In this document: positions 1,674 through 63,603 of the stretch, piece by piece
Layout: every line of letters starts with the position of its first letter
Position numbering within the stretch: position 1 is the first letter of the stretch
Virus record (IMG/VR): IMGVR_UViG_3300030113_000006
Coordinates: 1,341 to 65,340 of that record
DNA length: 64,000 nt
Strand: one strand, 5' to 3'
From: a virus
Lineage: Duplodnaviria; Caudoviricetes
Program-made: the position numbers and the translations under genes
Notes under the pieces: model-generated
Seen by the model: the letters and a program-made list of their open reading frames with translations, nothing else
Database searches by the model: none
What the model was told of the DNA's origin: nothing

Positions 1674-1685
1674 TACAAGGATGTA
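1674..1685 (+). promoter_or_regulatory. CsrA-type site overlapping scaffold RBS
   Basis: TACA-AGGA-TGTA hairpin matches the CsrA consensus ACA-RGGA-UGU; extended pairing ATGT/ACAT reaches the start codon at 1689. Confidence 0.6.
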
Positions 1686-1688
1686 GAC

Positions 1689-2444
1689 ATGGCTGATGAT
1701 TTAACCGCAAATCTAGCAACTATAGGACAACCAGACAGCACGCAATCAAACGATAACACCACAATAAATCCAGCACAGTCGGCGCTCCCAGAACCATCAT
1801 GGTATTTTGCGGAAGGCATACCAGGAGTTGGGGATAAACCTGATTATCTTGAACCAAAATATAAAACCTTGGCCGATCAAGCGAAAGCATACAAGGAAGC
1901 GCAAAAGTTATTAGGCACCCTAAAGGCAGCACCAGAAGAGTATGATTTTGGTGAAGCACAAGAGTATATCGACAAAGAAAATGATCACATCCAAGACTTC
2001 GTTAGGTTTGCTAAAGACAACAAGATACAACAAGATGCTTTCTCTAAGGTATTAAATACATATGTTGGGTACGATAAATCAAGACAATCTAAACCAGAAG
2101 AAGAAATAGCCAAACTTGGTAATGATGGTATGCAAAAAATTACCACCTTACAAAATTGGGTAAGAAATAACTTGAGCGAAGGCTCAATGAAGGCATTAGA
2201 AAAATTACCAGTCAAGGCAGAAGTAGTGCAAATGCTGGATGAAGTAAGACAGTTGCACATGAATACCTTATCTAAGATACCAACGGAAACACAAAAACCA
2301 AAGGTTAACTTGGTAACAAGAGATGAGATTGAGGCAGAGATGTTAGCAAATTACGGTCGCTATCAAACCGACCCACAATATAGAAGTCAAATCACTGCCA
2401 AGTTTGCACAAGCAATAGGTACCGGCAAGAATGACTTTGATTAA
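1689..2444 (+). CDS. Capsid scaffolding/assembly protein
   Basis: Position before capsid; KP..L.PKYKT..D.AKAY.E..K.LG...APEEY and C-terminal Y..DP.YR..I motifs. Confidence 0.75.
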   Translation: MADDLTANLATIGQPDSTQSNDNTTINPAQSALPEPSWYFAEGIPGVGDKPDYLEPKYKTLADQAKAYKEAQKLLGTLKAAPEEYDFGEAQEYIDKENDHIQDFVRFAKDNKIQQDAFSKVLNTYVGYDKSRQSKPEEEIAKLGNDGMQKITTLQNWVRNNLSEGSMKALEKLPVKAEVVQMLDEVRQLHMNTLSKIPTETQKPKVNLVTRDEIEAEMLANYGRYQTDPQYRSQITAKFAQAIGTGKNDFD

Positions 2445-2499
2445 AATATTATTGGTAGTAATCATGTTAGATGTTTTTTGGTGTCTATGTACTAAAAAA

Positions 2500-2551
2500 T
2501 TTTAATTATCTTTATACCTTTTGTTAGTACAAGGTATAAAGATAATTAAAA
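2500..2551. repeat. Perfect 21-bp inverted repeat, 10-nt loop, in the scaffold-capsid spacer
   Basis: ttttaattatctttatacctt-ttgttagtac-aaggtataaagataattaaaa. Confidence 0.9.
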
Positions 2552-2804
2552 CTGTTTCCATATAGAATCACGCGTATGCCAATTTAAATTTATTATCCTT
2601 GTTGATGGTGTGATTTTTTAAATTATAATTTGTCTAATCACGCATCTTGTTTAATGATGTGGATACTCATAAAAGGCTGGCCCATTATGGATACCCAGCA
2701 ATCTGTGACCCGCAAAAGAAATTAAGATAAGTGAAACATGGAACATTTTGCTAATTGCAAAATTAATATTGTTTTATTTATTTTTTGTAAAAGGAATTAT
2801 AGAT

Positions 2805-3737
2805 ATGAGTACATCGTTAACGCAGGTCCAACAAACAGAATTTGACGCTCTCGTTAAGATAGAATATAGATCCCGCGGATTTCTATTAAGAGACACCGTT
2901 CGTCTTAGGACTGACGTCATAGGTAATACTTGCCAATTTAGAAAGGTTGGACAGGTAATTGCTAACCCTGTAGGATTTCAAAATACTATTGCGATCCAAG
3001 ACCCACAATTCACTGCATACACCGCTCAACTAACCAAGTTTGCTGCTGGAACGGGTGTGGATAGTATACAGGATCTTACTGTAAATTTCGACACCAAAAG
3101 AGAACTCGCATTCGTTGTCGCCATGGCGATTGGACGTAGAAGCGATCAGATTATTATTAACTCAATGAATAATGCAGTATCATACCAACCAAATGTTGTT
3201 GATTTTGTTAATGGTGGAACCAATCCAATTCCAGTAGGTGGAACCGCAGCAATTACTGCTGAAACCAATATGACTTACTCCAAATTACGCACGGTTGTGT
3301 CATACTTCGATCAAGATGCAGTACCAATTGGTGAACGTTATTGCGCAATGACTGGTAGTAACTTACGTAATCTTTTACAAGCAGATCAAATTATAAGTCG
3401 ATTCTATACATCAAACGATGTAGTTGTAGATGGAACATTAAACTATAAAGAATTATTAGGTATGAATATTCGCGTGATCCCAGATATGTCTGAGGGTGGC
3501 CTTCCTACTATTACTGATACCAACGGTACTGCAGTACGCCAATGCTTCGCGTGGCATAAGATGGCTATTGGTATGGCAATTGGGCAAGACATGAGAACAG
3601 AGGTATCATACCTGCCACGTGAGACCACTTGGTTTGTGAATGGATTATTTTATGCTGGGGCAATAGTTGTTGATTATAGAGGTTTTTTTGTTATCAATTG
3701 TAATGAAGCACAAGCTGGCAATGTTAACATTAGATAA
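2805..3737 (+). CDS. Major capsid protein
   Basis: ATG 2805 after AAGGA (preferred to TTG 2748). Motifs EFD..VK..Y, AIGRRSDQIII, AWHK.AIG.AIG.D..TEV.Y.P are typical of this podovirus capsid class. Confidence 0.9.
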   Translation: MSTSLTQVQQTEFDALVKIEYRSRGFLLRDTVRLRTDVIGNTCQFRKVGQVIANPVGFQNTIAIQDPQFTAYTAQLTKFAAGTGVDSIQDLTVNFDTKRELAFVVAMAIGRRSDQIIINSMNNAVSYQPNVVDFVNGGTNPIPVGGTAAITAETNMTYSKLRTVVSYFDQDAVPIGERYCAMTGSNLRNLLQADQIISRFYTSNDVVVDGTLNYKELLGMNIRVIPDMSEGGLPTITDTNGTAVRQCFAWHKMAIGMAIGQDMRTEVSYLPRETTWFVNGLFYAGAIVVDYRGFFVINCNEAQAGNVNIR

Positions 3738-3785
3738 TTATACAGGAGCGACAAATATCCAATATTTAATATAGAGAGAAACTAG

Positions 3786-4539: not shown

Positions 4540-7500
4540 ATGGCAAGATATAATCCAGTTAACGATCAGATAGCAGCTGGCGCAGGAATATCTATAATCA
4601 ACAATAGTGTTGGTATTGCGATTATATCTGCTACAAATAATGCCCCGTCTACAACCGTAGCTAACAGTATAGCAATATATATTGATACGCAAGGAACATT
4701 TGGTAGCAGCGGTATAACCATTGATAGTTCTAATAATATTGCCGGCATTTCTTCTGTTGGGTGTGCAGCTGTAGAACTTAATAGCAATAATACTTATTAC
4801 ACCTCTATTGCTTCCCCTAATGGTTTAACAGAAACAATAAATTATATAATGCCGGCTACAATAGGTAATGCTGGCAACCTGCTTGTATTAAATTCCGTAT
4901 TAGGAAACACTGCAACCCTTACGTGGGCAACGGCTGGTGGTGAAGGTATCATAACTAGTGTTACCGGCACTACTCACCAAATTAGCGTGACATCCGGTAC
5001 AGCGCCACAAATATCTATAGCTAGTGATTATGCTGGTCAATCAAGTATCACAACCATTGGAACAATCACTACTGGAACATGGAATGCCAGCAATCTTACA
5101 GAATCTCAAATTACTAACCTTACTACCGATTTGGAGGCATGTGAAAAGATAGCTAACAAAGGGGTGGCAAGCGGCTATTGCCCATTAAACAGTAGCACTT
5201 TAGTTCCTCTTTCAAATATACAACAAGACATGTCTATTGATTTGTTGTCAAATTCGTTGGCTGCTTTTGTTGATAAAAATAGTATAAATAACATTGGTGA
5301 CAACTTATTAAATTTTTATAATTACAATCAAAATTACCCTTTGGCTTCACTTTATGCAAATTGGATAACAATAAGTGTTGCTAATAATTCATATAGAACA
5401 AATATTGACGCTTGTTATCCTGTCACATTTACAAAAATCAACTATACTGTAAATTCTGTAACTAATGGCGGATATACATTAAATATATACGGAAGTAATA
5501 ACACAACTAATTTTTATGACACAAGCACATCAGATTTATCATCGTTAACATTAGTAAATTCGTCACCAATCACAATTACAGCAACAGGAAATACAACTGT
5601 AACACCTTCAGGATTTAGATATTACCATTTGTTATTTACACCTGTAAATAGCGGTACATCAACACTAACAGTTGTGTTATCTTTTAATTATAAAAATTAT
5701 TCTCCTGTTTGTGGTTTAGATTTAACAACTGGATATATTGCAACATCTACCGTTCCAAACTACTTAGTGAAGTCTATTAATGGTATTACCACAACAAACA
5801 ATGCTATTACATTAGATTTATCCAACCTAAATGATTGCGCGATAACAACATCAACACTAGCAAATAACCAAGGATTAATTTACAACTCATCAACCTCAAC
5901 ATGGGTAAATCAACAAATAGATCATACAACTTTAGCAAACATTGGCACCAATACTCATGCACAAATAGATAGTTTTATAGCATCTAAAAGCAATGCGAAT
6001 GGATTGGCCGCTCTGGATTCCAACGGTCAATTAGTTTTGTCTCAAATCCCTAGTATTGCTCTTACAACTGTTAATGTTGTAGCAACTATTGCTGAACGTA
6101 ACGCACTAACAGGTATCCTTACTGGAGATGTTGTTATAGTTACAGGCGATCCGATAAGCAGCAACGATGGATCTTATATATATAATGGAACTGGATGGAG
6201 CACCCTATCAGTATATATTCAACCTACCAATCTATCGTCATTAACCGATGTAAGCGAAGGTACATTAGCAGATGGTAATCTACTTGAGTATTCAGCCTCG
6301 CTTGGCAAATGGACTAATTATATTTTTACTGGTAATACATCAATAACCACTCTTGGTGCCGTTACTACTGGAACTTGGAACGCTGGAGTTATAGGTTCTA
6401 GTTATGGCGGAACTGGTGTTAATAATAGTGGCAACACAATTACTATTGGTGGTAGCGTTACCGTATCTGGTGCGTATACAACGACCCTAAATGTAACTGG
6501 CAACACTAATATTACATTACCTACTAGCGGCACCTTAGCTACAACATCATCTATACCTAGTTTACCATTGTCGGTTGCTAATGGTGGTACAGGACAATCT
6601 TATTTTGCTCCTTATTGTTTGCTTTTAGGTAACCAATCTGACGGTATAAATACGACTTCAATATATGTGCATAATGGTTATAACATGTATGGCGTTGGGA
6701 TTTTAAGTTTTACCAATTACCTAAATACTGGAACCGCTAATTTTTTCCTTGGCGCAACCATGACGGAAAATGATACATATATTTTACCAACATCAATGGG
6801 GGCGGTTGGCAACGTATTAACAATAGGCAATCTTAATAATACAACTAATGCTATATTATCATGGACCGCCCCATCTGTTGGAACTACTGCCCTAGCAGGG
6901 CTAACTACAGACACACAGATTACTGGTACACCAGTAAGCGGAAGTTTGCTTATGTACCAAGATAGTGCTACCAACAAATGGATTAACACGACTATTGCTC
7001 CAACTAATGATCAACTATTAGTATACACAACGTATGGATCTGCAAATAGTTGGACTCCATATACCCTTAGTGGCGCGACATTTAGCGATAGCACTAAGAC
7101 TATTACGATTGCTAGTGGAACGGCTACAGCGCTACAATCAGCCACTACTGTAGTTTCTGTTAGTGCTGCTACTGCTCCAACAGTTAATCAAGCACTTGTA
7201 GCAACAAGTGGTACTTCAGCTACTTGGCAAATTCCAACAGTATTAGGTACTGTGACAACTGGTGTGTGGGCTGCCACACCAGTTACAGTTGCATATGGTG
7301 GTACCGGGGCTGCTTCCTGTACGGCGTATGCTCTTATTGCCGGAGGAACTACTACAACTGGCGCACATCAAAGTTTAACTACTGGAGTCTCAAATCAAAT
7401 ACTACTTTCTGGTGGTGCTGCTGCATTACCAACTTGGACAACAAACCTAACTGTTTCTCAAGGTGGTACTGGAATTACCTCGACAACAGCATGCGGAGTG

Positions 7501-10500
7501 TTGTGCGGAGGAACTACTACAACTGGCGTACTGCAGAACGCTGGAGCAGGCACACTTAATCAAGCATTAATATCCAATGGGACGGCTGCACTTCCAACGT
7601 GGGAAACAATAAGTACTTCTAGCGGATTAATTTCGGATATATCAGTGTCAAGTCTTGCTACGGGCGATGTTCTCAGGTGGAATGGAACAAAGTTTGCAAA
7701 CAGTACAAGTTTAACTGGTGATGAAGCGACCATTAGCAATTTACAGTTATCAACAGGGGTAGTAAAAACTCAAGCGAGCGTGACCCAAAATACAACCATA
7801 ACAACAACATACGTAGATGGAACTGACGGATATACGATGTATATCAACAACAGTAGTAGTGTACCATTTGCAATCACAGCTATTACTTCTTCTGGTGGCT
7901 TTAGTATATCAGGTGGTAACAGTGTATCAGGAAGCGGAGGTGGCGATCCTACTTTTAATAGGATTAATCTCAATTTTGGAGTTGTTACTGGTTATGCTGT
8001 TAGTGTATATTTTACTACAGGTGGAGACAATGGTAATACACAAACATTTTATATATATGGTTCAAATAATGCCACATGTTATGCAAACACCTCTAATACG
8101 GTAACAGGAGCAACATTACTATATACATCTCCTACCGTAAACCCTCAAGGATATACTGGATCATATTCATTAACAAATACTACGGTTTACCAATACTTTC
8201 ATATTTTGAGAAGTGGAGGCGCCACAAACGTATCCTTTACAGGGCTGCAAGTATTCAAGAATGCAGGTTCAACATCAGGATTAGTTAATGGAACTGATTT
8301 TACAGTTTCAACCGATGCCGCAACAGGAAAACCTGCAATAAAATATACTGATGCCGCAACAAACACTTTAACATATAATGAAACGACATTATCAATATCT
8401 GAATTATACAGAAGAATATATCCAGTTATCTATAATTCATCTGACATTGTATTATCTACCACTGCTACCAAATTAACTGGATATGCAGCTACTAGTTGGA
8501 ACATTGAGAATTATAGTGGCACGCTAAACTATAACTACAATGGTACTACTGAAATGGCAGTATCTTCTGCTGGCACATTATCTCTAACTGGCAACCTACA
8601 ACTTAATAATGGCTCTTATTCAATTACACTTGCAAGCCCAACGCTAGCTGCATCATCAACTTATACATTACCTTCTGCTGTTGCTACATCTACTAATCAA
8701 TTCTTATACACATCAGCGGCTGGTACCGGAACAAATACCTTAGCGTGGTCGACCTTGGCCCTAGGCAACACCAAATGGACTGATGTGTCTATTGCTTCAC
8801 CTGCCAGTGGAAATATATTAAAGTTTAACGGAACAAATTGGACAAATACTACAGATTTAACAACTGTACAAAGTCAAATAACCACACTGCTTGTTTCAAC
8901 TGGTATACTAGTAAATCAAAGTTCTGTAGCTCAAGGAACGTCTATAACTACCGGCTATACTGATGGCACTAATGGTAATATAGTTTTTGGAAATAATACC
9001 ACAGCAAGTAATATGACTCCAACCGCTTTTACTGGCTATCCTGCTGATAATTGGAGTATTAATGGTTATAAGGTTTGGGATGGCGGTCATACTGACTGGA
9101 ACGTTAGCAATACTACTTCATATTTAAGGCTTGCGATTAACTATGGTACACTTTTTCAAGTATCATCATTTTATTGGAGTTTAAATGCTATACCTACTAA
9201 TGGAAGCAATATAAACTTCAATGTCTATGGTGGTACTCTTGCTTCTGTTTATACTGACACTGCTTACGACACTACTAACTTAACGTTACTATGCAATGTA
9301 GCATTAACTACTCAAACTGGTTCTGTAGCTATTACTAATACTTCGCAATTTCAATATATTGTTATATTAGTTCAAGATGCAACAACTACTAATAGTTCTT
9401 ATAGTACTAATAACGGTGGCTTCTGGGTGCAAAAAGCTGCTGGAGGTTACAATGGATTAATCCTTGCTACCGATTGGAATATAAGTTCCAGCACAACAAC
9501 TGGTGCACCAATAATCACTTATGCTGATAGCACTACGCAAAATTTAACTTATAATGTTGACACCTTGTTGGTTGAAGAAGCCTATAGAAGATTATATCCT
9601 GTTGTTAGAAGTACCAGCGATATAGTATTAACATCAACTAGCAATACTTTAAGTGGATACGCAAGCACCAGCTGGAATATTGAAAACAACTCTAGCATTT
9701 TAAACTTTAACTATAACGGAGCAACAAATTTAGCTATCAATTCTAGTGGGGCAATCACTACTGGAGCATGGTACGCCACAGCGATTGCAACTCAATATGG
9801 TGGTAGCGGTCTTACTGCTACAACTCCATACGCAATAATGACAGGCGGAACAACTAGTACTGGTGCATTGCAACAGTTAGCTACTGGTGCAAGCGGACAA
9901 TTGTTAGTTTCTGGCGGCAGTGGGGCATTAGCTGGTTGGAGTTCTAATATTAGCGTTGATTCCTCTGGTGATATTGGTACTACTGGTAATCTATATGCTA
10001 ATAATGTAATCGCCACTGGTAATCTTGCTGTGTCCGGAACAATAACCTCTGGCACCATAACTGCCAGTGTTGCAAGCAGCACTCATGTATTGAAGTTTAT
10101 ATGTCCAGTTTCATATACACTGTATACGTTTGATTACATATGTTTTTGTCCTCAAGCAATTAACTCGTTTATTATAGACCTAAGTATGGCTAAGAGTAAC
10201 ATTGCCTCAGTAGGGGCGCGTATAGTGCTGCCATCTATAGGGGTCAACCAATCAATTTATTTACAATTTATAGGGGCCAATCCAAACCCACTTGTTAATC
10301 AAGTGACTATAGGGGATAACAGCTCAACAACAATGCCCTACTTTGATAACGCCTTTTATTTCTCGCCGACCAATTGGTCATTAGGGTACGTGTATAATGG
10401 TACTGGCGCAACTTTCAAATTTACTTTCTATTCACCAGCAAGCGCCAACCCTTGGTACTCCGGTAACCCTTGTACTACACCAAACTCATGGCAGATACAA

Positions 10501-10821
10501 CAAATTTCTAGCAACCAAATACCATTGCCAAACAGTATCAATCTGATATATATCTATTCATGTTCCAACACATCACTATCTGGATATTACGCATCACTAA
10601 TATTGCCAACACTAGTTTCTGGTCAACAAATATGCATAAAAGACGCAACAGGATATCTAAATTATTCTAATGTGCAAGTAATTGCTGCAAATAATGATTT
10701 GATCGATGGTATGGCAAACAGGGTATATAACACCGCCAATTTGGCGTTTATGTATACGTATGTTGGTAACGGTTCGTATGGTAATTTATTTTCATTGTTT
10801 TACAGCACAACGCCTAGTTAA
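4540..10821 (+). CDS. Giant Thr/Ser/Gly-rich fibre/adhesin-like virion protein (2093 aa)
   Basis: Repeated fibre motifs (TTGTWNA, V..GGTG, L..L.DV.....G..L.yn...W.N) and three related globular inserts containing (F/L)NIYG.N/YIYGSN. Confidence 0.75.
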   Translation: MARYNPVNDQIAAGAGISIINNSVGIAIISATNNAPSTTVANSIAIYIDTQGTFGSSGITIDSSNNIAGISSVGCAAVELNSNNTYYTSIASPNGLTETINYIMPATIGNAGNLLVLNSVLGNTATLTWATAGGEGIITSVTGTTHQISVTSGTAPQISIASDYAGQSSITTIGTITTGTWNASNLTESQITNLTTDLEACEKIANKGVASGYCPLNSSTLVPLSNIQQDMSIDLLSNSLAAFVDKNSINNIGDNLLNFYNYNQNYPLASLYANWITISVANNSYRTNIDACYPVTFTKINYTVNSVTNGGYTLNIYGSNNTTNFYDTSTSDLSSLTLVNSSPITITATGNTTVTPSGFRYYHLLFTPVNSGTSTLTVVLSFNYKNYSPVCGLDLTTGYIATSTVPNYLVKSINGITTTNNAITLDLSNLNDCAITTSTLANNQGLIYNSSTSTWVNQQIDHTTLANIGTNTHAQIDSFIASKSNANGLAALDSNGQLVLSQIPSIALTTVNVVATIAERNALTGILTGDVVIVTGDPISSNDGSYIYNGTGWSTLSVYIQPTNLSSLTDVSEGTLADGNLLEYSASLGKWTNYIFTGNTSITTLGAVTTGTWNAGVIGSSYGGTGVNNSGNTITIGGSVTVSGAYTTTLNVTGNTNITLPTSGTLATTSSIPSLPLSVANGGTGQSYFAPYCLLLGNQSDGINTTSIYVHNGYNMYGVGILSFTNYLNTGTANFFLGATMTENDTYILPTSMGAVGNVLTIGNLNNTTNAILSWTAPSVGTTALAGLTTDTQITGTPVSGSLLMYQDSATNKWINTTIAPTNDQLLVYTTYGSANSWTPYTLSGATFSDSTKTITIASGTATALQSATTVVSVSAATAPTVNQALVATSGTSATWQIPTVLGTVTTGVWAATPVTVAYGGTGAASCTAYALIAGGTTTTGAHQSLTTGVSNQILLSGGAAALPTWTTNLTVSQGGTGITSTTACGVLCGGTTTTGVLQNAGAGTLNQALISNGTAALPTWETISTSSGLISDISVSSLATGDVLRWNGTKFANSTSLTGDEATISNLQLSTGVVKTQASVTQNTTITTTYVDGTDGYTMYINNSSSVPFAITAITSSGGFSISGGNSVSGSGGGDPTFNRINLNFGVVTGYAVSVYFTTGGDNGNTQTFYIYGSNNATCYANTSNTVTGATLLYTSPTVNPQGYTGSYSLTNTTVYQYFHILRSGGATNVSFTGLQVFKNAGSTSGLVNGTDFTVSTDAATGKPAIKYTDAATNTLTYNETTLSISELYRRIYPVIYNSSDIVLSTTATKLTGYAATSWNIENYSGTLNYNYNGTTEMAVSSAGTLSLTGNLQLNNGSYSITLASPTLAASSTYTLPSAVATSTNQFLYTSAAGTGTNTLAWSTLALGNTKWTDVSIASPASGNILKFNGTNWTNTTDLTTVQSQITTLLVSTGILVNQSSVAQGTSITTGYTDGTNGNIVFGNNTTASNMTPTAFTGYPADNWSINGYKVWDGGHTDWNVSNTTSYLRLAINYGTLFQVSSFYWSLNAIPTNGSNINFNVYGGTLASVYTDTAYDTTNLTLLCNVALTTQTGSVAITNTSQFQYIVILVQDATTTNSSYSTNNGGFWVQKAAGGYNGLILATDWNISSSTTTGAPIITYADSTTQNLTYNVDTLLVEEAYRRLYPVVRSTSDIVLTSTSNTLSGYASTSWNIENNSSILNFNYNGATNLAINSSGAITTGAWYATAIATQYGGSGLTATTPYAIMTGGTTSTGALQQLATGASGQLLVSGGSGALAGWSSNISVDSSGDIGTTGNLYANNVIATGNLAVSGTITSGTITASVASSTHVLKFICPVSYTLYTFDYICFCPQAINSFIIDLSMAKSNIASVGARIVLPSIGVNQSIYLQFIGANPNPLVNQVTIGDNSSTTMPYFDNAFYFSPTNWSLGYVYNGTGATFKFTFYSPASANPWYSGNPCTTPNSWQIQQISSNQIPLPNSINLIYIYSCSNTSLSGYYASLILPTLVSGQQICIKDATGYLNYSNVQVIAANNDLIDGMANRVYNTANLAFMYTYVGNGSYGNLFSLFYSTTPS

Positions 10822-10889: not shown

Positions 10890-10903
10890 TTTCACGGAAG
10901 AAA
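10890..10903 (+). promoter_or_regulatory. CsrA-type site at RBS of 10910
   Basis: TTTC-ACGGAA-GAAA: ANGGAN hexaloop closed by C-G. Confidence 0.55.
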
Positions 10904-10909: not shown

Positions 10910-11806
10910 ATGGCATTTCAACCACAAAATCTAGCAAGGGTATCAGTCTCGACTAACGAGGAAATCACCGATATAATAAATAATCAGGTGATAGATACTG
11001 CTTCTCCTGCTCCTGGTAACCCCGGGTATCCATTATATCTTAAGACTGATTGCAAAGGATGCTTTAGAACATATAATTATTTCTCTAAATGGTATACAGG
11101 AACTACCACTTCTACTGTTGATGGTGATACCCAGGATACAATAGCTAGCCCCGAGTACTTTGATTTGGCGGCAGGAATGTTGCAGGTTGGCGATATTATT
11201 CATGCTTATAGTGCCGCGGATAACACATATATAACTTATAATGTTACCGCAACTCCTACTGTTGCCAACCCTAACGCATCAGTAACCGTTGCTCCTGCTG
11301 TTACAGGAGCAGTGGAAGATAGTGTTGTAACAAATAGCACCGTAACAAACACAAAAATTATTTTCTCTACTATTGCTAATTGTAACTATCAGATTGAAAC
11401 CCATGGACCATTTAGTGGTAATGATTTGTTAAATTTATCTACAACTCCAATACAAATAATTGCAGGCGTACCTAATACAATCATAATAATCAATAGCGTT
11501 GTTTTTTGTTCTTCTGATGGTGCTGGGTTTACTGGCGGTTCAAACATATGGCTTGGTTATTATTATGTTGATAGCGGTACGCCCACAACTGTTCCAGCAT
11601 CTACCTATGTGAATCCAACCATATTAACAGGAACTAATAGCCGTATATCTATAGAAGGTTTTGCCCCTTTCGTAACCACTTATGCTACATCTAGCATTGT
11701 TGGGGTTGGAATATATTTAATGACGGGTTCACCATTTATTTCCGCCGGCACGAAAGAATTAGAACTAATTGTAAACTATAGTTTATATCCAGCATTAAAA
11801 TTTTAA
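10910..11806 (+). CDS. Putative decoration/structural protein, paralog 2
   Basis: MAFQPQNLARVS.S.NEEI...GCFR.YNYFSK...GD.Q..I....YF...A..LQVGD.I, closely similar to 11834. Confidence 0.6.
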   Translation: MAFQPQNLARVSVSTNEEITDIINNQVIDTASPAPGNPGYPLYLKTDCKGCFRTYNYFSKWYTGTTTSTVDGDTQDTIASPEYFDLAAGMLQVGDIIHAYSAADNTYITYNVTATPTVANPNASVTVAPAVTGAVEDSVVTNSTVTNTKIIFSTIANCNYQIETHGPFSGNDLLNLSTTPIQIIAGVPNTIIIINSVVFCSSDGAGFTGGSNIWLGYYYVDSGTPTTVPASTYVNPTILTGTNSRISIEGFAPFVTTYATSSIVGVGIYLMTGSPFISAGTKELELIVNYSLYPALKF

Positions 11807-11833
11807 CAATTTAAATTATCAAGGAGCGATAAA

Positions 11834-12601
11834 ATGCCTTTTCAAATACAAAATTTTTCAAGAGTATCCAAGTCTGCTAATGAAGAAATTAATAACATAC
11901 AAGATGTTGTTAATGTAGATTCAAATGGTAATAGACTACTTATTGGTGTTGGCGGATGCTTCCGTGAATATAACTATTTTTCTAAAACCTACTCTGGCGG
12001 AATTCCAGGTGGCGCAGCAGCAACCGCGTCCGGCGATAGCCAAGGAGCAATTTATCAGGTTAGCTATTTTAATGCGGTAGCTAGCGATCTTCAAGTTGGA
12101 GATTTAATAAACGTATATAGCTATGCAGACAATTCTTATGCGGTATATGCGGTACTTACTACTATTACACAAGCAAATCCTAATGGTAATGTTACCCTTG
12201 GAATGGTTAAGAACGCCAAGAGTGTCATATATATTTCACCAGCACAAATTTTAGCTCTTAATGCAACTCCAGTCGTTATGGTTAACGGTGGAAATAATTA
12301 TCTTGTTAGCGTTAATAATGTTTGCTTTACTATAGCCTCTAGTAGTGTTGCATATGCTGGTGGAGCACCAGTATTTTTAAACTATAACGGTGGCGGTAAT
12401 GCTTTAACTGGCACTACAAGTGTACCAGCAGCATTCTTTACTGGTGGTGTTAACGGATTGGTAACCGCTAACGGTGTAGCTCCGGCTGCCGCTAATGCAA
12501 ACCAAAATATAGTATTAACAACTGCCACAGCATTTACTGGCGCAGCAGGTGTTAAACCAATGTTTGTAAGTATAGATTACACTGTATATCCATTCTTTTG
12601 A
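11834..12601 (+). CDS. Putative decoration/structural protein, paralog 3
   Basis: Similar to 10910 along its length (GCFREYNYFSK, LQVGDLI, L.L..TP..., Y.VYP). Confidence 0.6.
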   Translation: MPFQIQNFSRVSKSANEEINNIQDVVNVDSNGNRLLIGVGGCFREYNYFSKTYSGGIPGGAAATASGDSQGAIYQVSYFNAVASDLQVGDLINVYSYADNSYAVYAVLTTITQANPNGNVTLGMVKNAKSVIYISPAQILALNATPVVMVNGGNNYLVSVNNVCFTIASSSVAYAGGAPVFLNYNGGGNALTGTTSVPAAFFTGGVNGLVTANGVAPAAANANQNIVLTTATAFTGAAGVKPMFVSIDYTVYPFF

Positions 12602-12700
12602 TCGTACATTTAGCGCAAATACGATTGCAGAGTGATGTGGTTTGTAATTTATAGATTGCAGCATGTGATTGATAGAATAATATAATTTACAGGATGTAAT

Positions 12701-13297
12701 ATGGCTTTCACTAGGGTACAGATTATCTCGCACGCTCTTACCCTGATGGGTAGAAAGCCTATTACATCTTTATCACAACAATCTGACATAGTAAATAGTG
12801 CCGACCAAGCGTTTGATTTACTATTAACCTCGGCAATATCAATTGGATTTTGGCGGTTTGCTACTACTATTGCCGTCTTGCAAAAATTAAATATAACTCC
12901 AGTGGGTGGTTATTGGGCGTACGCTTACAGCCTGCCAGCTGATTATCTTAAGATGGTCCACTTATGGCCGCAATTATATGACTTTGAGATATATCAAGAT
13001 GCACAATTATACACCAGTTTCAACAACAGCAATCAACCTTTATATATAGAGTATAATTTCTTGCCTCCTGAGACTATGTTGCCAGCTTACTTTATCAAAT
13101 ACTTTTGTTACGAACTAGCATGTCACCTAGCACTTAGTAATGCTCAATTGCCAGATTATACTCAAGAATTAGAACGCAAAAGGGTAATTGAATTATCCAT
13201 AGCACAAGCAGCTGATACTCAAAATAGACCACAAAGCCCATTGAGATCACAACCAATGGTAGCTTTAAGGTTTGTATCTTCTTTTGCATCTGGGTAA
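12701..13297 (+). CDS. Tail tubular protein A (T7 gp11-like)
   Basis: I...AL..MG..PI.SL, WRFAT, W.YAY.LP.DYL, P.YF......LA; size and position. Confidence 0.85.
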   Translation: MAFTRVQIISHALTLMGRKPITSLSQQSDIVNSADQAFDLLLTSAISIGFWRFATTIAVLQKLNITPVGGYWAYAYSLPADYLKMVHLWPQLYDFEIYQDAQLYTSFNNSNQPLYIEYNFLPPETMLPAYFIKYFCYELACHLALSNAQLPDYTQELERKRVIELSIAQAADTQNRPQSPLRSQPMVALRFVSSFASG

Positions 13298-16238: not shown

Positions 16239-16871
16239 ATGTTTCAGTATATATTGTTAGCTGCACAAGCAGCTGGATTAGTTGCTAACATACTGCAAAC
16301 CAAGAGAGAAAATAAGATTGACAGACAGGGTTTACAAATACAACAAAGAGACCTTGATCTAAGAATGCAGCAAGAACAATTGGCTAGTAGTCAAGAAAGT
16401 TTATACAACATGGCAAGACTACGAGATACGATGGCAAGCCAAAGAGCTATATTTGCTGCACGAGGACAATCATCTGCCCAAGGATCTAATTTTTTTATAG
16501 GTCAAAATTCAATCTCTAGTTTTAATGAAGATGAGCAGGCACGCAAGTTATCATTAAACTTTAGACAGCACTATATCAATGTTAATAAAACCTTAGCATC
16601 CATGGAGACCACGGGAAGAATACATGCAAGAAAAGGTAGATTATTGAGCGAGGTATTAAATACTATTTCATTTAATTCGTTAGGATCGTTTGGTAGTGAT
16701 GGTGGTGGTGTTAATAATACATTACAAGTCATTAGCAAAGGTGGTTGGGATACTGGTCTTAACACCAGGAGTACTCCAGGACCCAAGGGTGGTTGGATAA
16801 CAGGAAGCAACATTAGCAACTCTTGGCGCGATCTTGGTGGTAAGAAAAGTTTTAGCGGGTTAAATGGGTAA
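16239..16871 (+). CDS. Internal virion (ejection) protein, gp14-like
   Basis: Hydrophobic N-terminus, Q-rich helix, QRA.FAARG....GS motif; follows tail tube B. Confidence 0.6.
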   Translation: MFQYILLAAQAAGLVANILQTKRENKIDRQGLQIQQRDLDLRMQQEQLASSQESLYNMARLRDTMASQRAIFAARGQSSAQGSNFFIGQNSISSFNEDEQARKLSLNFRQHYINVNKTLASMETTGRIHARKGRLLSEVLNTISFNSLGSFGSDGGGVNNTLQVISKGGWDTGLNTRSTPGPKGGWITGSNISNSWRDLGGKKSFSGLNG

Positions 16872-16900: not shown

Positions 16901-19336
16901 ATGCCAGAATTACCAGAATATAAAAAACAAAGGCATACAGTAGAGCCAGCACCTATCGTTAGTGGTATCCAAAGTACCTATAATAATATGGCTAAAGGTA
17001 CTGAGTGGATTGGTAGGATGGGGGCATCAATAGCACAAAATGCTGCCAATCAACTAGCTACTCTTAAGGGAGAAGAGGAAGCAATTAATAATCCTAATAG
17101 ACAACTGTTTCCAGCATTTACTGAGGCCGATAGTCATTTTGTAAAGGCATTTGAAAATGAGGCATACAATGGGGCGGTACAATCTGCTAACCAATTATTA
17201 CAAAAGCAATATGAAACCGTTCTTAGTCAACCACTAAGTAGTGAATCACTAGCATTGTTTGAAAAAAACAGCGTGGTCGGGTTAGACAACATAATGCAAT
17301 CAGCACCACAAGGAGTGCGTTCTAAACTAAGGCATGATTTAATGGACGCATATAATAGCAATTACTTTCAACTTAGTAAACAGCTAGCACATAAGAATCA
17401 GCAAGAATTAATTGGTAACTTCCACGGACAAATTAATAGAGATTTGCGTTCAATATCTGAGAAAATAAATTTGGGTTTTCCGGACGATGCTAAAAAGATT
17501 AAAGAACGCATGGTAGACAATATTGATGCAGCTGAATCTAATAGACTAATTAGCAAAGAAGACGCAACCAGTTATCGCGAGATGACAGATTTAACATTTA
17601 AAAGCACTCCTTATATAAAAAAAATACGTGACCTTCTTAGTGATAGAGCCGTTGGAGAAAGCAAAGCACTAGAATTTTTAGAAAACTTTGAACGTAATCC
17701 ACCCAAAGGGCTTACGCCAACACAACATAATACCATCGGCAAGATGATGACAGATGAATATCGCCGTGTGGACATGATGATCAAGGGTAACCAACATCTC
17801 AATACCATCCGCATGGATAACGCAAGAAAGGCTGGTACATTAGATGAGGCATCATTACCTGAATGGCACGCCAAGGTGGGGGAAACGAACTTCTTGCATC
17901 AAATAGGATTAGACTTGGTAGAACAACGCAAGAGACAAGTAACCTTGGAAAATGCATTAGATACCGCATTTATAATAGCTAGTGGTGGTTCATCTGCCAA
18001 TATAACTAACGACCAGGCTAAAGATTATTACAATGTATTAGTTGATGAAGCACAACGAACTGGTTCAGCTGTAGATGCTGGCATGGCATATGATATTGCT
18101 AGAAGTATTAATCATGACGGTATACCACTTAAGGATACAATTGAACGAATGGTAACTAGTGGCTCACCAGAAGAAATACAACAAGCATCTGCATTAATAG
18201 CTAGAGATTCAGCAGACAAAAAATCAAAAGTCCTTGTAGGACTAGACAAAGATGCCAAGTTAGTCGCAAGATTATTTACAAACTATTCCTATAATCAAGA
18301 ATTAACACCACAACAAGTGGCCGATAAAGCGCGTTCTGAGGTGTTTGATATTAGTGATAAGACTGCCGAGGAAAGGGAAAAACAATTTGCAAACATAATA
18401 CAAAAAAGGGGCTATAGTGATTCCTTTAGAGTACAAAAAAAAGTATCTAACTTGCTTGACTCAAGCACAAAAGCAATACCATTAGATATGGTTTCAGACT
18501 TTAGGGTGCACCTTAAACAAAATTATAAGAATTGTGGTAATGAGTTGATTGCGGAAGCGCAAACCAAAGAAGATTTATTAAGGATGTATAGTTTAACTAG
18601 AACTAATGGGCCGGCAGAATGGACTAAGGGAGCACCAGAAGATGTTATACCAAAACCATTTGTAGAGGTGCAAAATGAGAAAGCATTAGACCTAATGTCA
18701 TTAATACCAAAAACAAAGAAAGCATATGATGATAAAAATGGTTTTGATTATTATCTGGAGTTACCAGAAGGCGAAATAATTACCCCGGAAGAATGGAGCA
18801 AGCAACTACACCCATCCTTTAGCACCATGGGCGAAATAGAACTTCTTGGACAACCAGTAAAACGTAAGTTTAATATTAAGGAAGATTTATTACAAAAATT
18901 TGATGATATTACTATATACAAGGTAACCAAAGATGGTTTTGGTTACCTTCATAAGGAAAAATGTTGGTTCAAGATTATAGCGGATAATCTTACTGAGTTT
19001 CCAGCACAAGGACAACAACCATCATATCTAGCGGTTATTGTACCTGAGAGTACGGGTAGACCAGAGTTAATAATAAATCCTGACGATACGGCTGATGTAA
19101 TAAGATTTACACCAACTGTCGACCCAGGGCAAGATTTACAATCAAAATTAAATAAGTTTAAAAGCAAATATAGAAGAGGGATGAGAGATTATTACATTAA
19201 TCAATTTGTGGAGTATCAAAGACTTCTTACTGGTATGCGAGAAGGGTTTGAAACACAAGGCGCTGACATTGCTAGATTGTTGTGGGGAGATGAAAATCCA
19301 TTTCACCCTAGAACTACAGATGTAAAAGACGATTAA
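16901..19336 (+). CDS. Internal virion protein, gp15-like
   Basis: 811-aa helical protein in ejectosome position. Confidence 0.5.
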   Translation: MPELPEYKKQRHTVEPAPIVSGIQSTYNNMAKGTEWIGRMGASIAQNAANQLATLKGEEEAINNPNRQLFPAFTEADSHFVKAFENEAYNGAVQSANQLLQKQYETVLSQPLSSESLALFEKNSVVGLDNIMQSAPQGVRSKLRHDLMDAYNSNYFQLSKQLAHKNQQELIGNFHGQINRDLRSISEKINLGFPDDAKKIKERMVDNIDAAESNRLISKEDATSYREMTDLTFKSTPYIKKIRDLLSDRAVGESKALEFLENFERNPPKGLTPTQHNTIGKMMTDEYRRVDMMIKGNQHLNTIRMDNARKAGTLDEASLPEWHAKVGETNFLHQIGLDLVEQRKRQVTLENALDTAFIIASGGSSANITNDQAKDYYNVLVDEAQRTGSAVDAGMAYDIARSINHDGIPLKDTIERMVTSGSPEEIQQASALIARDSADKKSKVLVGLDKDAKLVARLFTNYSYNQELTPQQVADKARSEVFDISDKTAEEREKQFANIIQKRGYSDSFRVQKKVSNLLDSSTKAIPLDMVSDFRVHLKQNYKNCGNELIAEAQTKEDLLRMYSLTRTNGPAEWTKGAPEDVIPKPFVEVQNEKALDLMSLIPKTKKAYDDKNGFDYYLELPEGEIITPEEWSKQLHPSFSTMGEIELLGQPVKRKFNIKEDLLQKFDDITIYKVTKDGFGYLHKEKCWFKIIADNLTEFPAQGQQPSYLAVIVPESTGRPELIINPDDTADVIRFTPTVDPGQDLQSKLNKFKSKYRRGMRDYYINQFVEYQRLLTGMREGFETQGADIARLLWGDENPFHPRTTDVKDD

Positions 19337-19488
19337 CAATAATTATAGTGAGGATAATAAACAAAAAGATTAATAATAACGCTAGCGAACACAATAGATA
19401 AAAATATTAATAATAATTATAGTGAACGTAAATAGATAAGAAGATTAATAATTATAATGGATACAAGTAAACAAAAGGATTAACAATG
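19331..19488. repeat. Degenerate tandem array, about 37-bp period (5 copies)
   Basis: (G/T)ATTAA(C/T)AAT units at 19331, 19368, 19405, 19443, 19478; the first holds the upstream stop codon, the last the downstream ATG. Confidence 0.75.
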
Positions 19489-23790: not shown

Positions 23791-23806
23791 AAAAGGATTT
23801 TTAAAT

Positions 23807-43586: not shown

Positions 43587-44069
43587 ATGATACGTAAATC
43601 CTTGGAGCCAAACAAGATGATTGCTAAATATAGAAAAACAGGTAGTAAGAGAGCACCCAAAGGTAGTGTTTCTGCGGTTTGTTCTTTAAAACCAACAACA
43701 AGAAATAAATCAGTAACAAAGAAAACATCTAAAACAACCACAAAGAAAGGCGCTAGTAAAATAATTACTAAAGGGTTGGCCATGAAAACAAAACGAATAG
43801 TTGCCCAAAGATTAGTTAAAATTTTAAAAGATGGATTTAAAAAAATTAGCAAGAAGAAAGCAACCAAGAAATCAGCTAGAGCAGCTATCAAAATAAGGCA
43901 ACCAAGAGGGCAACTAAAAAAGAAACAAAAAAAAACAATTAAGAAGCCAAATAATAAACGAATTAATAAACTAAACAAAGATTCATTTTATAAAGAACTA
44001 CAAGCGGTAAGGAATGTTATTCACAAAACGCCACCGCTAGGAAAAACAATAGTAATAGATAATACCTAA
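43587..44069 (+). CDS. Lys-rich histone H1-like basic protein
   Basis: Very K/R-rich (KKTSKTTTKK, KKKATKKSARAA, KKKQKKTIKK); start chosen after AAGGGA. Confidence 0.5.
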   Translation: MIRKSLEPNKMIAKYRKTGSKRAPKGSVSAVCSLKPTTRNKSVTKKTSKTTTKKGASKIITKGLAMKTKRIVAQRLVKILKDGFKKISKKKATKKSARAAIKIRQPRGQLKKKQKKTIKKPNNKRINKLNKDSFYKELQAVRNVIHKTPPLGKTIVIDNT

Positions 44070-44114
44070 CTCCTAATATCTAATAGTAGCAACAGCGGTA
44101 TAGAGGAGATGGTC

Positions 44115-45107: not shown

Positions 45108-45168
45108 TTATTATTAGGCTGGCATAAGATGTAAGTATAATGAATAGCAGCTAGAGGTCAAGGGTTTT

Positions 45169-50349: not shown

Positions 50350-50901
50350 TTAGGAATCAGTTAATAGTTTATCGATGTACCTTCTTTTCTTAATTGTGAT
50401 AGTAGGTTTTATTGTGTTCCGCCCGTTTATATTATTACTTGTCGTATTATAATTTGTTTTACGCTTTAAAGCATTTTCTGGCATAAATCTTTTGTTAATT
50501 GGTGGTACGTATTTATTATTGTTATCATCCATTACAAAAGGAGCCTTGTGTTTCGTGTAACCTTTGTTTGTATGCCCTTTATCCTTATGACCCCATTTGT
50601 TGGTTAGTATGCTTACAAATCTTATGTTTACAGCCTTAAGTCTACCATCCTCTTGTTTTATTACATCGTAGGTTACCTTAAGGTGGTTTATATCCTTAAA
50701 ATCTTTAGATGAAAAGAATACCATTGGTCCTGCCTTCTTGGGTCTGATAAATCCATACTCACGTAAGTAGAATGATTTTATTATACCTGTATTACCTGTT
50801 GCGGGATACTCTTCTTGTCCTTGCTGTAATGGTGCTTCTTGTTGTGGTTGTACTTGTTCCTTTATATTTACTGGTGCATCAGGAGTAGTTATATCTTCCA
50901 T
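50350..50901 (-). CDS. Cold-shock (OB-fold) domain protein
   Basis: TG.IK.F....YGFI.P......VFF, V.Y.......GRLKAVNI; basic C-terminal tail. Confidence 0.75.
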   Translation of the reverse strand: MEDITTPDAPVNIKEQVQPQQEAPLQQGQEEYPATGNTGIIKSFYLREYGFIRPKKAGPMVFFSSKDFKDINHLKVTYDVIKQEDGRLKAVNIRFVSILTNKWGHKDKGHTNKGYTKHKAPFVMDDNNNKYVPPINKRFMPENALKRKTNYNTTSNNINGRNTIKPTITIKKRRYIDKLLTDS

Positions 50902-61831: not shown

Positions 61832-61955
61832 ATATTATTTATGGTGGTTATAATTTTACCATTCTAGAGTAAAATTGCATAGCATATGAGTGATATTAAT
61901 TTGGCTTGTAGGTATTTTCATTGTTGCCATCTTTATTTATTGTATACAAACAAAT

Positions 61956-62363
61956 TTAAGAAGTGAGCCGTAATCTTGGTCTAGTTCTTGATATTCTTCT
62001 TAATTGGTGTCTTTCAGTATAATTATCTAAGATAATACCGTGCGCATTTAGATTGGTTAATTCATGTAATAAATTTCTTTCGTGATTATCTAGATTAGAA
62101 TATCCTTCTTTATATATCTTAGTCTTTAGATAACAATATACTTGAATTGTTGGTATCTTAAGTGAATCAAAATCATAGATAAGTCGTGTTATGTTAGCCC
62201 TTATCATTGGGAATAACCTATTATATTCTGTTTCCGATATTCGATTACACATAGTAGGTGAATATACTATAGTATGTATACTACTTCTGTAGCTATCACT
62301 ATTTTCTAGATCTTCAACTATCATATTGTTTATATTACTTGGATCGCATACGTTGTTTGGCAT
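61956..62363 (-). CDS. Hypothetical protein
   Basis: AGGA RBS; 135 aa. Confidence 0.5.
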   Translation of the reverse strand: MPNNVCDPSNINNMIVEDLENSDSYRSSIHTIVYSPTMCNRISETEYNRLFPMIRANITRLIYDFDSLKIPTIQVYCYLKTKIYKEGYSNLDNHERNLLHELTNLNAHGIILDNYTERHQLRRISRTRPRLRLTS

Positions 62364-62378
62364 ACAAAATTCCTACAT

Positions 62379-62406
62379 AAAAACCCCTGCAATATTACTA
62401 GCAGGG
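62379..62406 (-). terminator. Rho-independent terminator after the OMP gene
   Basis: Minus strand ccctgc-10 nt-gcaggg followed by gttttt. Confidence 0.6.
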
Positions 62407-62454
62407 AATACTATGGAGATAGCTATTAATTAAAGTTAATATTTGTATTAGTTT

Positions 62455-63099
62455 TTATATTCTTACAACCACACCAGAAGACATGCCTAAACTATTTCTA
62501 AGTTTAATTGCAACATTATTATCAATGGTCTTTAATTTGGAAGTATGCTCGTAACTCAATAATGTTCTCATGCCAACATATTCATTAAACATATATTCAA
62601 TACCAGTTAATGCAGTAATAACCAATTTAGATTTGTTAACACTAATTGCCCCATTGTTTAGTGGTGCATTAAGATTTACTTTTATTTGTTTAATGCCCAC
62701 GCCATTTAACCATATTAAGTTCCCGCAAGATGGTAATATGTAATTATGTACTAGGCTTGTGCCTATATTGAAGAATTTAACTTTATTATTACCTTTTTTG
62801 CTGCTTCCTAAGGTCTTTTCTACAGAGGCTTCCAAGTTTAAATTATCTATTAATTTAAACCCGACAAAGGCACGACCCATTTTGTGAGATCCTTTAAATA
62901 AGTTGTGACCGAAACCATTTTTAAAACCAACGTTTTTTATTCCAACGTCAGCTCCTAAGTAGGGTGATATATCTGCAACAGCTGCCATAGATAACAATAT
63001 GCACAATGTTATTGAACTAGCTTTAATAAACGTTTTTATTTTGTTGTTGGTATTTTTGATTATTGCGTTATTTGCCTTTAAAATCGTTGTTGAAACCAT
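62455..63099 (-). CDS. Outer-membrane beta-barrel protein (OmpA-TM/Ail-Lom-like)
   Basis: Signal-like segment ending AAVA, PYLGAD.G, alternating beta-strand pattern (FVGFK, G.EY.F...VG.R). Confidence 0.7.
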   Translation of the reverse strand: MVSTTILKANNAIIKNTNNKIKTFIKASSITLCILLSMAAVADISPYLGADVGIKNVGFKNGFGHNLFKGSHKMGRAFVGFKLIDNLNLEASVEKTLGSSKKGNNKVKFFNIGTSLVHNYILPSCGNLIWLNGVGIKQIKVNLNAPLNNGAISVNKSKLVITALTGIEYMFNEYVGMRTLLSYEHTSKLKTIDNNVAIKLRNSLGMSSGVVVRI

Positions 63100-63315
63100 T
63101 TAAACTTTCTCCTTTGTTCCTTTATTATTTAATTATAACTTTTTTTACAATTATTTCCATTAGTATTTGTAAAATTGCTTGTTTTACATTATCAATAAAT
63201 ACAAACATAGGTGGTGGCATGACATAAGCATTATACTATTATTAATATATATTGCTTTTATAACCTTATTGTTTATATACTCCTTTCTTTTTTAGAAAAT
63301 AAGGAATGGTATTGG

Positions 63316-63603
63316 ATGTTGATTTTAACTAGAAGGATTGGGGAAAGTTTGGTTATCGGAGATAATGTTACGATAGCGGTTTTAGAGGTAAAGGGCAATA
63401 AAGTTAGAATTGGCGTAAATGCTCCTAAAGAGGTTTCAGTTCATAGAGAAGAAATTTATAAACGTATTCAAGAAGAAAAATTGAATAAACTTGACGCAGA
63501 TAGAAATAAAACAGATCCCAATATAATAGATCACACAACAACAATAAAAAATTATAGAAAAACAGGCTATAGAGAGTATTTTGATTGCATGTGTGATAGA
63601 TAA
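63316..63603 (+). CDS. csrA: Carbon storage regulator CsrA/RsmA with C-terminal extension
   Basis: [48 protein letters not shown]; RNA-binding Arg44 (HRE) intact. Confidence 0.97.

Follow-up and report, generated by a model that had tools for sequence, protein, structure and literature searches.

Candidate CsrA-type operators at the late genes of a temperate, T7-like phage lineage that carries its own csrA

We examined a 64,000-nt stretch of DNA (hereafter the window) from a tailed phage of the class Caudoviricetes, which comprises bases 1341-65340 of the linear, 65,340-nt IMG/VR record IMGVR_UViG_3300030113_000006 (G+C 36%; 87% complete as estimated by CheckV; no terminal repeat on the record). 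The phage is temperate and T7-like, and belongs to a lineage from peat and soil. Short hairpins that present GGA in their loops lie over the ribosome-binding sites (RBSs) of about half of its late genes, within a narrow range of distances from the start codon and with a shared loop motif, and the same virus encodes a protein of the CsrA family. On balance, we lean toward the reading that the late genes of this lineage begin behind CsrA-type operators that would gate virion protein synthesis. Such a predicted operator consists of a short hairpin with A-N-GGA-N in its loop, usually closed by a C-G pair and located 7-15 nt upstream of the start codon.

The hairpins listed in the initial annotation of this DNA were all found in place, and the csrA gene at 63316 was intact. 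The hairpins over RBSs are given below (stem-loop-stem, loop in lower case), together with orthologous forms from related IMG/VR loci (numbered with L) and from C13, a 60-kb contig of a metagenome-assembled genome (MAG) that represents a close relative (79% and 77% identity in tail tube A and TerL, respectively).

1674-1685, plus strand: scaffold (1689-2444), TACA-agga-TGTA, matches CANGGANG; L002/L033 orthologue TTAC-aaggaa-GTAA
2788-2799, plus strand: major capsid (2805-3737), TAA-aaggaa-TTA, 3 bp; orthologue stems TGA/TCA (L001, L033) and TTGGC/GCCAA (L003-L008), no hairpin in L009-L015
4525-4536, plus strand: 2093-aa fibre (4540-10821), GCA-caagga-TGC, matches CANGGANG; orthologue stems TTAA/TTAA, CAAC/GTTG and CAACA/TGTTG
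10890-10903, plus strand: gene 10910-11806, TTTC-acggaa-GAAA, an ANGGAN hexaloop with a C-G closing pair; C13 orthologue ATTGTC-atggag-GACAAT
11816-11832, plus strand: gene 11834-12601, TTATC-aaggagc-GATAA; C13 ATTCC-atggag-GGAAT, L001 TATTCC-aaggag-GGAATA
12687-12699, plus strand: tail tube A (12701-13297; phrog_394), TTACA-gga-TGTAA
16223-16234, plus strand: gp14-like gene (16239-16871), TAAA-agga-TTTA; C13 TTAA-agga-TTAA
16886-16899, plus strand: gp15-like gene (16901-19336), ATATA-ggga-TATAT; C13 TAACAA-gga-TTGTTA
23789-23803, plus strand: fibre 1 (23807-25447), TAAAAA-gga-TTTTTA; C13 ATAAAA-gga-TTTTAT
27375-27394, plus strand: 49-aa gene 27394-27543, TATATTC-acggag-GAATATA, a 7-bp stem and hexaloop with a C-G closing pair; C13 ATAAAAC-aaggag-GTTTTAT
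28865-28876, plus strand: gene 28885-29382, CAC-aaggaa-GTG, 3 bp, matches CANGGANG
32027-32041, plus strand: gene 32045-32230, TTACA-aggaa-TGTAA
32636-32651, plus strand: gene 32652-33002 (PriCT_2-like), AAAGC-aaggaa-GCTTT, matches CANGGANG
36611-36622, minus strand: gene 36303-36608, AGCA-agga-TGCT, matches CANGGANG, outside the late module
41525-41539, plus strand: 74-aa open reading frame (ORF) 41543-41767, TGAAA-aggag-TTTCA
42001-42014, plus strand: gene 42016-42468, CAACA-agga-TGTTG, matches CANGGANG
45097-45112, minus strand: sigma-70-family gene (44115-45095), AATAAA-tgga-TTTATT; C13 CAAA-ggga-TTTG, L004/L007 ATAAAC-atggaac[a/c]-GTTTAT (a GGA-loop hairpin in 4 of 4 versions seen)
63298-63313, plus strand: csrA itself, AATA-aggaatgg-TATT, a weak hairpin of 4 bp with an 8-nt loop, alone not above chance

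The label "endolysin" that had been given to the gene at 28885-29382 is unconfirmed, as this gene has no Pfam match and belongs to phrog_3108, a family of unknown function.

The hairpin excess was evaluated against several null models. Gene starts were set with an ORF caller that combines codon-usage log-odds with a Shine-Dalgarno (SD) term, which yielded 69 genes; the ORFs at 28885, 41543, and 42016 were later added by hand. The portal gene was left out (fewer than 35 nt upstream), and 49 of the remaining 68 genes had a GGA starting at -20 to -5 (the other 19 were not counted), for which the statistic was the longest perfect Watson-Crick stem closing a 3-8 nt loop that contains GGA. Stems of at least 3, 4, 5, and 6 bp were observed at 26, 14, 9, and 4 of these genes, respectively, compared to 16.6, 5.7, 1.8, and 0.5 expected when GGA and ATG were fixed and the rest was shuffled (p = 0.003, 0.0005, <0.0005, and 0.002), and to 16.8, 6.8, 2.4, and 0.7 expected when 3' flanks were exchanged between genes, which keeps the position-specific consensus (p = 0.0035 to 0.0005). 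By region, the flank-shuffle null for stems of at least 4 bp gave 10/21 genes versus 2.5 expected at 1-34.3 kb, 2/7 versus 0.9 at 34.3-42.4 kb, and 2/21 versus 2.1 at 42.4-64 kb. The excess is therefore restricted to the late module (virion, lysis, and packaging genes; positions 1160-33002, plus strand, assigned with Pfam and PHROG).

The initial annotation had proposed a test against shuffles preserving both SD and dinucleotide content, along with a comparison to host genes and a hunt for compensatory stem changes in relatives. In the stricter null used here, the ANGGAN hexamer was fixed and the flanks were shuffled with dinucleotides preserved (1000 shuffles), and the late excess held: stems of at least 4 bp occurred at 10/22 late genes versus 3.83 expected and stems of at least 5 bp at 7/22 versus 1.41, with 0/1000 shuffles reaching either value. 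The block at 34.3-42.5 kb was borderline and included two of the hand-added ORFs (at least 5 bp, 3/9 versus 0.72 expected, p = 0.015), and the genes from 42.5 kb onward were at expectation (2/21 versus 2.0). The hairpin counts thus support the regulon proposed in that annotation for the late module and not for replication and recombination, where the stem at ERF (3 bp, with the ATG inside the hairpin) and those at rep and PriCT-2 (2 bp each) are all at chance level.

Folding gave the same regional pattern, as ViennaRNA minimum free energy structures (-32 to +10) placed the GGA in a hairpin loop at 11/22 late genes (2.0 +/- 1.3 expected; 0/300 shuffles reached this value), 2/9 mid genes (0.7 expected), and 1/21 accessory genes (2.1 expected). 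When hairpins of at least 4 bp with any loop sequence were counted, loop centres peaked at -12 to -7 (12/25 late genes; 0-7 in the other 3-nt bins). On the plus strand of the late region, GGAs at RBSs were more often in hairpins than GGAs elsewhere, both for stems of at least 4 bp (10/24 versus 54/417; Fisher 8e-4) and of at least 5 bp (7/24 versus 15/417; Fisher 6e-5). The motif CANGGANG occurred 28 times on both strands, compared to 13.8 +/- 3.7 in dinucleotide shuffles, a control that does not preserve the SD (0/100 shuffles reached 28). Two controls showed no excess of stems of at least 4 bp, namely phage T7 with its annotated starts (3/53 versus 5.0 expected) and candidate-host genes (9/50 versus 7.3 expected), taken from some 130 kb of non-phage contigs in the genome bin where a relative was found. 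Therefore, the hairpins do not arise from the method, nor do they characterise translation starts of the candidate host in general.

Relatives of the phage divide by the presence of these hairpins. A capsid search returned 15 IMG/VR loci (59-71% identity) and one contig of the MAG, which is titled "uncultured Francisellaceae bacterium." Among L001-L008 (capsid identity 67-71%), which are partly near-duplicates, 31 of 75 RBSs had stems of at least 4 bp versus about 7.6 expected; among L009-L015 (59-68%), this was true for 2 of 64 versus about 6.8 expected. The late module of C13 belonged with the former (8/14 versus 1.9 expected), and 6 of 10 window-C13 orthologue pairs with comparable starts had stems of at least 4 bp in both phages. 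Orthologues of the capsid, fibre, 11834, gp15-like, and 49-aa genes retain the hairpin with an altered stem sequence, and the same genes in L009-L015 have plain AAGGAG or GGGG sites that are stemless. In the 49-aa gene, for example, five of seven pairs differ on both sides between the window and C13, and all are still paired. RNAalifold recovered, for one leader set, a 4-bp consensus stem closing A-N-GGA-N in which 3 of the 6 sequences have CG in place of UA at one pair; on MAFFT-aligned capsid leaders it returned no structure, the short hairpins being misaligned. Judging from these comparisons between orthologues, the RBS hairpins are conserved through compensatory change.

These comparisons also bear on whether the pattern might be an artefact of A/T-rich composition, of gene-start choice, or of SD sites counted as motif. 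The low G+C content and the SD term in the ORF caller would favor such an artefact, yet the excess survives four null models that keep composition, SD, or both, and the same caller gives no excess in host contigs, the sister clade, or the accessory half of the window. With the T7 annotated starts also negative and the stems covarying between orthologues, we regard this explanation as extremely improbable.

The putative regulator is a 95-aa, intact CsrA with a canonical core (residues 1-55) and, beyond it, some 40 aa of unique extension. It matched PF02599 at 89.7 bits (cut-off 27; residues 1-53 on profile positions 1-53; 90.3 bits in a six-frame search), and its core is identical to E. coli CsrA (1Y00) at 45 of 57 positions (79%). 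Residues L2, L4, R6, V42, R44, and I47 are invariant in a seven-sequence alignment, and R7 and V40 are retained as in E. coli CsrA; we take the RNA-binding residues, from alanine-scanning work, to be those of strands beta1 (L2-R7) and beta5 (V40-I47, including R44). Given its similarity to solved dimers, the protein likely adopts the intertwined homodimer fold. The hairpin at its own RBS could permit autoregulation.

Two csrA genes are present in the MAG. The chromosomal copy stands in a lysC-csrA-tRNA-Ser-tRNA-Arg arrangement, and the second lies on C13 between a sigma-70-family gene and genes for an outer-membrane protein (OMP) and a metacaspase, inside an accessory set shared with the window. 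A third lineage is represented by G007 (32.6 kb), which shares 19.6 kb with the record of L004, G002, at 99.94% identity and carries a 42407-like gene, OMP, HD hydrolase, csrA (83.8 bits, 120 aa), ParA, sigma, and metacaspase genes. Across the three phage lineages (window, at 34590-35270, 42407-45095, 51941-53305, and 60654-63603; C13, L036-L038; and G007, L081-L082), the common accessory set comprises a sigma-70-family gene, a metacaspase, an OMP-like beta-barrel, csrA, ParA, and a 359-aa protein of unknown function; a SpoT-like HD_4 hydrolase is likewise found in all three, and the order of accessory genes varies among them. Thus csrA occurs in 3/3 hairpin-bearing lineages whose accessory region is represented, at most about 2 kb from the OMP gene in each. 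No csrA was found in G005 (30.6 kb, with terminal repeats), the sole complete genome of the hairpin-free clade, or in three further hairpin-free fragments, which are 62-66% complete and carry low evidential weight.

The csrA gene is truly phage-borne: in an independent peat metagenome run, one contig that begins at 53758 crosses the integrase, ParA, and OMP genes before it reaches csrA. We rejected the view of csrA as mere host flank beside an ssrA attachment site, because two other phages have the gene within the shared accessory region and because that contig joins it to the phage OMP gene. Core identity of the window CsrA was 49/54 to the chromosomal CsrA of the MAG (L034, 1501-1731) and only 36-37/54 to the other two phage copies, which suggests that the window csrA was recently exchanged, either replaced by or converted with the host gene. 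The 3' part of csrA and the adjoining transfer-messenger RNA (tmRNA) may have been joined by assembly across shared sequence, given that a second csrA allele of similar depth was present in one metagenome run and given the match to the chromosomal CsrA. The tmRNA starts 17 nt after the csrA stop codon, and the contig ends 16 nt past the tmRNA. An RNA-library contig matched 203 nt of the tmRNA exactly; in this comparison, which was made without the late module, RNA-library contigs matched the OMP region, the ORF at 61956, and the tmRNA, and none covered csrA. Promoter and terminator predictions near csrA gave 14 sites versus 17.3 expected and were uninformative, and the MAG contained no 16S rRNA or tmRNA match above the cut-off.

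CsrA/RsmE recognition predicts a 5'-C...G-3' orientation and an A two bases ahead of GGA, and pairing with the anti-SD predicts neither. This expectation for the site comes from the RsmE-hcnA structure (PDB 2JPP) and from the E. coli CsrA consensus reported from systematic evolution of ligands by exponential enrichment, RUACARGGAUGU. We aligned 53 non-redundant hairpins of at least 4 bp from the hairpin-bearing clade on their GGA, which starts 7-15 nt ahead of the start codon in 53/53. Position -2 was A in 49/53, position -3 was C in 30 and G in 0, position -1 was free (A 33, T 11, G 5, C 4), position +3 was T in 24, G in 15, and A in 11, and position +4 was G in 25/53; the commonest loops were AGGA (13) and ATGGAG (7), and the consensus was C-A-N-G-G-A-N-G. 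The SD-only set from the sister clade (n = 59) had A at -2 in 19, C at -3 in 13, and G at +3 in 32 sites; the corresponding counts for host genes (n = 50) were 23, 6, and 24, plain SD sites preferring A at -1 and G at +3. The motif was also counted blind to folding, with one GGA per gene (the closest to -10). CANGGANG covered 10/36 late RBSs (window and C13) versus 2/63 accessory genes of the same two phages, 2/59 in the sister clade, 2/50 in the host, and 2/53 in T7 (Fisher tests, 9e-4 and 3e-3). The sites have GGA in the loop of a short hairpin, an A(N)GGA core flanked by C...G, and overlap with the SD or start region, as CsrA/Rsm operators do, and their consensus reads as the CsrA/RsmE motif rather than an extended SD.

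Other phage RNA-binding proteins might in principle use such operators, in the manner of T4 RegA or RNA-phage coat proteins, which would make the resemblance to CsrA sites coincidental. The phage has many ORFs without a family and a weak cold-shock-domain match at 50350-50901, which leaves room for such a protein. We consider it very unlikely, given that six positions of the consensus agree with the CsrA motif, that a canonical CsrA is encoded in each lineage, and that no other candidate was identified.

For the CsrA reading, we infer binding, repression, and relief as follows. Free CsrA, from both host and phage, would occupy the loop GGA of late RBSs and block loading of the 30S subunit, so that virion, lysis, and packaging proteins would be made only once late mRNA exceeds free CsrA or CsrA is withdrawn. 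Release by an excess of late mRNA would amount to a titration threshold, below which leaky late transcripts would stay silent in lysogens; alternatively, release might follow from the host's own Csr state. As the sigma gene also stands behind a hairpin, late transcription may be gated by the same regulator, and if this sigma factor drives late transcription, a feed-forward gate would result. In a broader form that we hold only tentatively, the whole virion programme would be wired into the bacterial Csr growth-state switch, with each late cistron and sigma behind a CsrA operator and with csrA and a SpoT-like HD hydrolase aboard. If so, synthesis of virion proteins would require that a titration threshold be passed or that the host be in a particular physiological state. 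This would constitute a post-transcriptional checkpoint, on timing or on the choice between lysis and lysogeny, of which no phage example is known to have been described.

Several observations weigh against CsrA operators at the late genes. Many stems are A/U-rich with just 3-5 bp, and the loop is in some cases a triloop or tetraloop. Classic CsrA targets have two or more sites spaced so that one dimer bridges them; most late sites here appear to be single, with an extra A-N-GGA within -75 to -23 or +4 to +45 at 16/44 late versus 22/99 accessory genes (p = 0.10). No Csr/Rsm small RNA family was detected at E<=1 (only the tmRNA reached the Rfam gathering score), FliW was not found, and intergenic DNA had no cluster of GGA hairpins apart from the RBSs of small ORFs. 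The co-occurrence of csrA and hairpins involves only three positive lineages and one complete negative genome. Phage F116, which has csrA (its CsrA-like gene, L087, 33363-33569, lies in the middle of the structural module), showed neither stems in excess (2/42 versus 3.8 expected) nor CANGGANG (0/42), and 17 other csrA-bearing viral loci had no hairpin excess within 6 kb of csrA, a weak test as their late modules were mostly out of view; therefore, csrA carriage alone does not predict such sites. A different role for phage CsrA, the repression of host defences, has been published (in the accessible part of PMC8450108). Two suppositions of the initial annotation about this switch also found no support. 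The lysogeny lock and its relief by CsrA titration are unsupported, with no sponge RNA and no FliW found. The absence of a CI/XRE repressor is likewise unsupported: XRE, CI, Cro, and LexA Pfam families matched 0/50 window proteins, yet 13% of the genome is missing and many small ORFs have no family.

The same short, A/U-rich, and single sites, with the SD core always within the loop, would suit CsrA-independent cis elements that display a weak AAGGA SD in a loop or protect intercistronic RNA, in which case the phage csrA would only reprogramme the host; the hairpin-free F116 and the proposed targeting of host defences by phage CsrA (PMC8450108, as far as its accessible part goes) fit this as well. 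Such elements would not predict the C at -3, the A at -2, or the loss of the SD-type G at +3, host genes translated by the same ribosomes show no excess, triloops and tetraloops would impede anti-SD pairing, and the hairpin trait follows csrA in 3/3 lineages, so we think this alternative fairly unlikely. Late transcripts may instead act as a decoy, in which 15-20 high-affinity CsrA sites on abundant mRNA titrate host CsrA late and switch the host Csr regulon, with control of phage translation being secondary. The density of sites along one long co-directional module would fit this logic, which equals that of CsrB/RsmZ. However, the sites are exactly on RBSs and not in untranslated RNA, no dedicated non-coding array was found, and it is difficult to see why a phage would both add and titrate CsrA, unless at different times; this makes the decoy quite improbable, less so than operators of another protein.

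Compared to known systems, gating of the late genes by CsrA would combine familiar parts in a different setting. CsrA, RsmA, and RsmE repress at SD hairpins, with glgC and cstA as E. coli targets. The predicted operators are alike in having a loop GGA over the RBS and A-N-GGA with C-G closing, as is the protein in its core; they differ in that the predicted targets are virion genes (about half of a 30-kb late module), that the regulator gene is on the same virus, and that the sites are mostly single. T4 RegA and the MS2/Qbeta coat protein (at the replicase operator) are phage translational repressors that bind RBS hairpins, and here too a virus-encoded protein is predicted to occlude viral RBSs at an RNA hairpin. 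Those repressors are virus-specific and act on early genes or a single gene, whereas a borrowed bacterial global regulator is predicted here across the late module, so that the host Csr state would be read too. Paralogues of csrA on mobile elements include CsrT/CsrR of Legionella pneumophila integrative and conjugative elements and RsmQ of plasmid pQBR103 (PMC4471563 and PMC9928087, in their accessible parts). As in the window, the element's own CsrA stands beside a chromosomal one and in a maintenance or accessory part; there, the known effects are on host traits or conjugation, whereas in the window the operators are predicted at structural genes of the element itself.

Phage csrA genes themselves have been catalogued. 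In the accessible parts of these reports, Sobrero and Valverde (2020) found csrA/rsmA in 30/2517 phage genomes (PMC7366521), and Campa et al. (2021), from a survey of GenBank and IMG/VR, put forward a role in suppressing host defences, CRISPR-Cas among them (PMC8450108). The window resembles these cases in having a phage-encoded CsrA-family protein and a candidate host lineage with its own csrA, but the proposals in those parts concern host manipulation or CRISPR-Cas suppression, with nothing on operators at the phage's own genes, and the catalogued F116 lacks the hairpins. In Salmonella, over-expression of host csrA lowers prophage release through cI (PMC12371270, accessible part), and phages are unmentioned in the accessible part of PMC13443453. 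Full-text literature searches (supplements excluded) returned no paper in which a phage has CsrA operators at late genes of its own. The novelty that the initial annotation saw in such a switch thus holds for the operators and not for the carriage of csrA by phages.

The remaining gene content of the window is as follows.

35-31920, plus strand throughout: virion and packaging genes in T7 order
Late genes in order: portal (Head-tail_con), scaffold-like, capsid (Phage_capsid_2), 2093-aa fibre, tail tube A (phrog_394)
Late genes, continued: tail tube B, gp14-, gp15-, and gp16-like genes, two fibres, HNH gene, TerL
33017-34237, plus strand: RtcB RNA ligase (426.7 bits)
34590-35270, minus strand: HD_4 (SpoT-like) hydrolase
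37662, minus strand: ERF
44115-45095, minus strand: sigma-70-family gene (RpoS/RpoD-like)
51941-53305: metacaspase (Peptidase_C14)
56293-57760: truncated DarT and Macro/DarG gene
58088, minus strand: P4-type integrase
60446-61361, minus strand: ParG and ParA
62455, minus strand: OMP-like gene
63316-63603, plus strand: csrA (PF02599)
63620-63984, plus strand: complete tmRNA (Rfam, 173 bits)

Membership of the T7-like podoviruses (Autographiviridae) is suggested by Head-tail_con, Phage_capsid_2, phrog_394, and TerL in T7 order, and a sigma-70-family gene is also present. No single-subunit RNA polymerase (PF00940) was matched in the window phage or three relatives (G002, the complete 30.6-kb G005, and G007), in a search in which control genomes were also silent. 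A motif of about 32 nt ending in TATAATATATAA is common to 1600-1631 and 23760-23791, about 55 nt 5' of the scaffold and fibre-1 genes, and may be a candidate late promoter. Four 22-nt repeats with about 37-nt spacing (19356-19487) precede the gp16-like gene. Between TerL and the next genes, two long palindromes (32283-32480) scored as microRNA precursors of plants or animals when Rfam was searched permissively (62 bits, short of the gathering score), which reflects very long perfect hairpins only. Within the 370-aa ORF at 39475-40587, five copies of an 11-nt-spaced repeat (GACAAAYGGGRGACA type; 39545-39656) look like the iterons of a replication-initiator gene. The DarT gene is truncated, covering only PF14487 profile positions 89-201. 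Two independent peat metagenome runs have contigs that match the window at 99% or more on either side but skip 1684 nt, precisely the DarT/DarG cassette (56310-57995), and the cassette is therefore a variable insertion in the phage population.

Control of phage late genes is understood almost wholly as transcriptional, through antitermination, late activators, and phage polymerases. Both the regulator and the operator type proposed here are known; what would be new, and is partly supported by our data, is a module-wide translational regulon of viral late genes with a self-encoded copy of the regulator. If true, a module-wide translational gate that works through a global bacterial regulator would add a layer through which host physiology bears on virion production. 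Phage-borne csrA genes, in catalogues since 2020 but with no phage target known, would thereby gain a first concrete function. The putative phage operators, which are 12-20 nt long and vary in stem and loop along one mRNA, would form a compact natural graded set for studies of CsrA site strength. With operators this short and a core this close to that of E. coli CsrA, the idea can be tested by standard tools.

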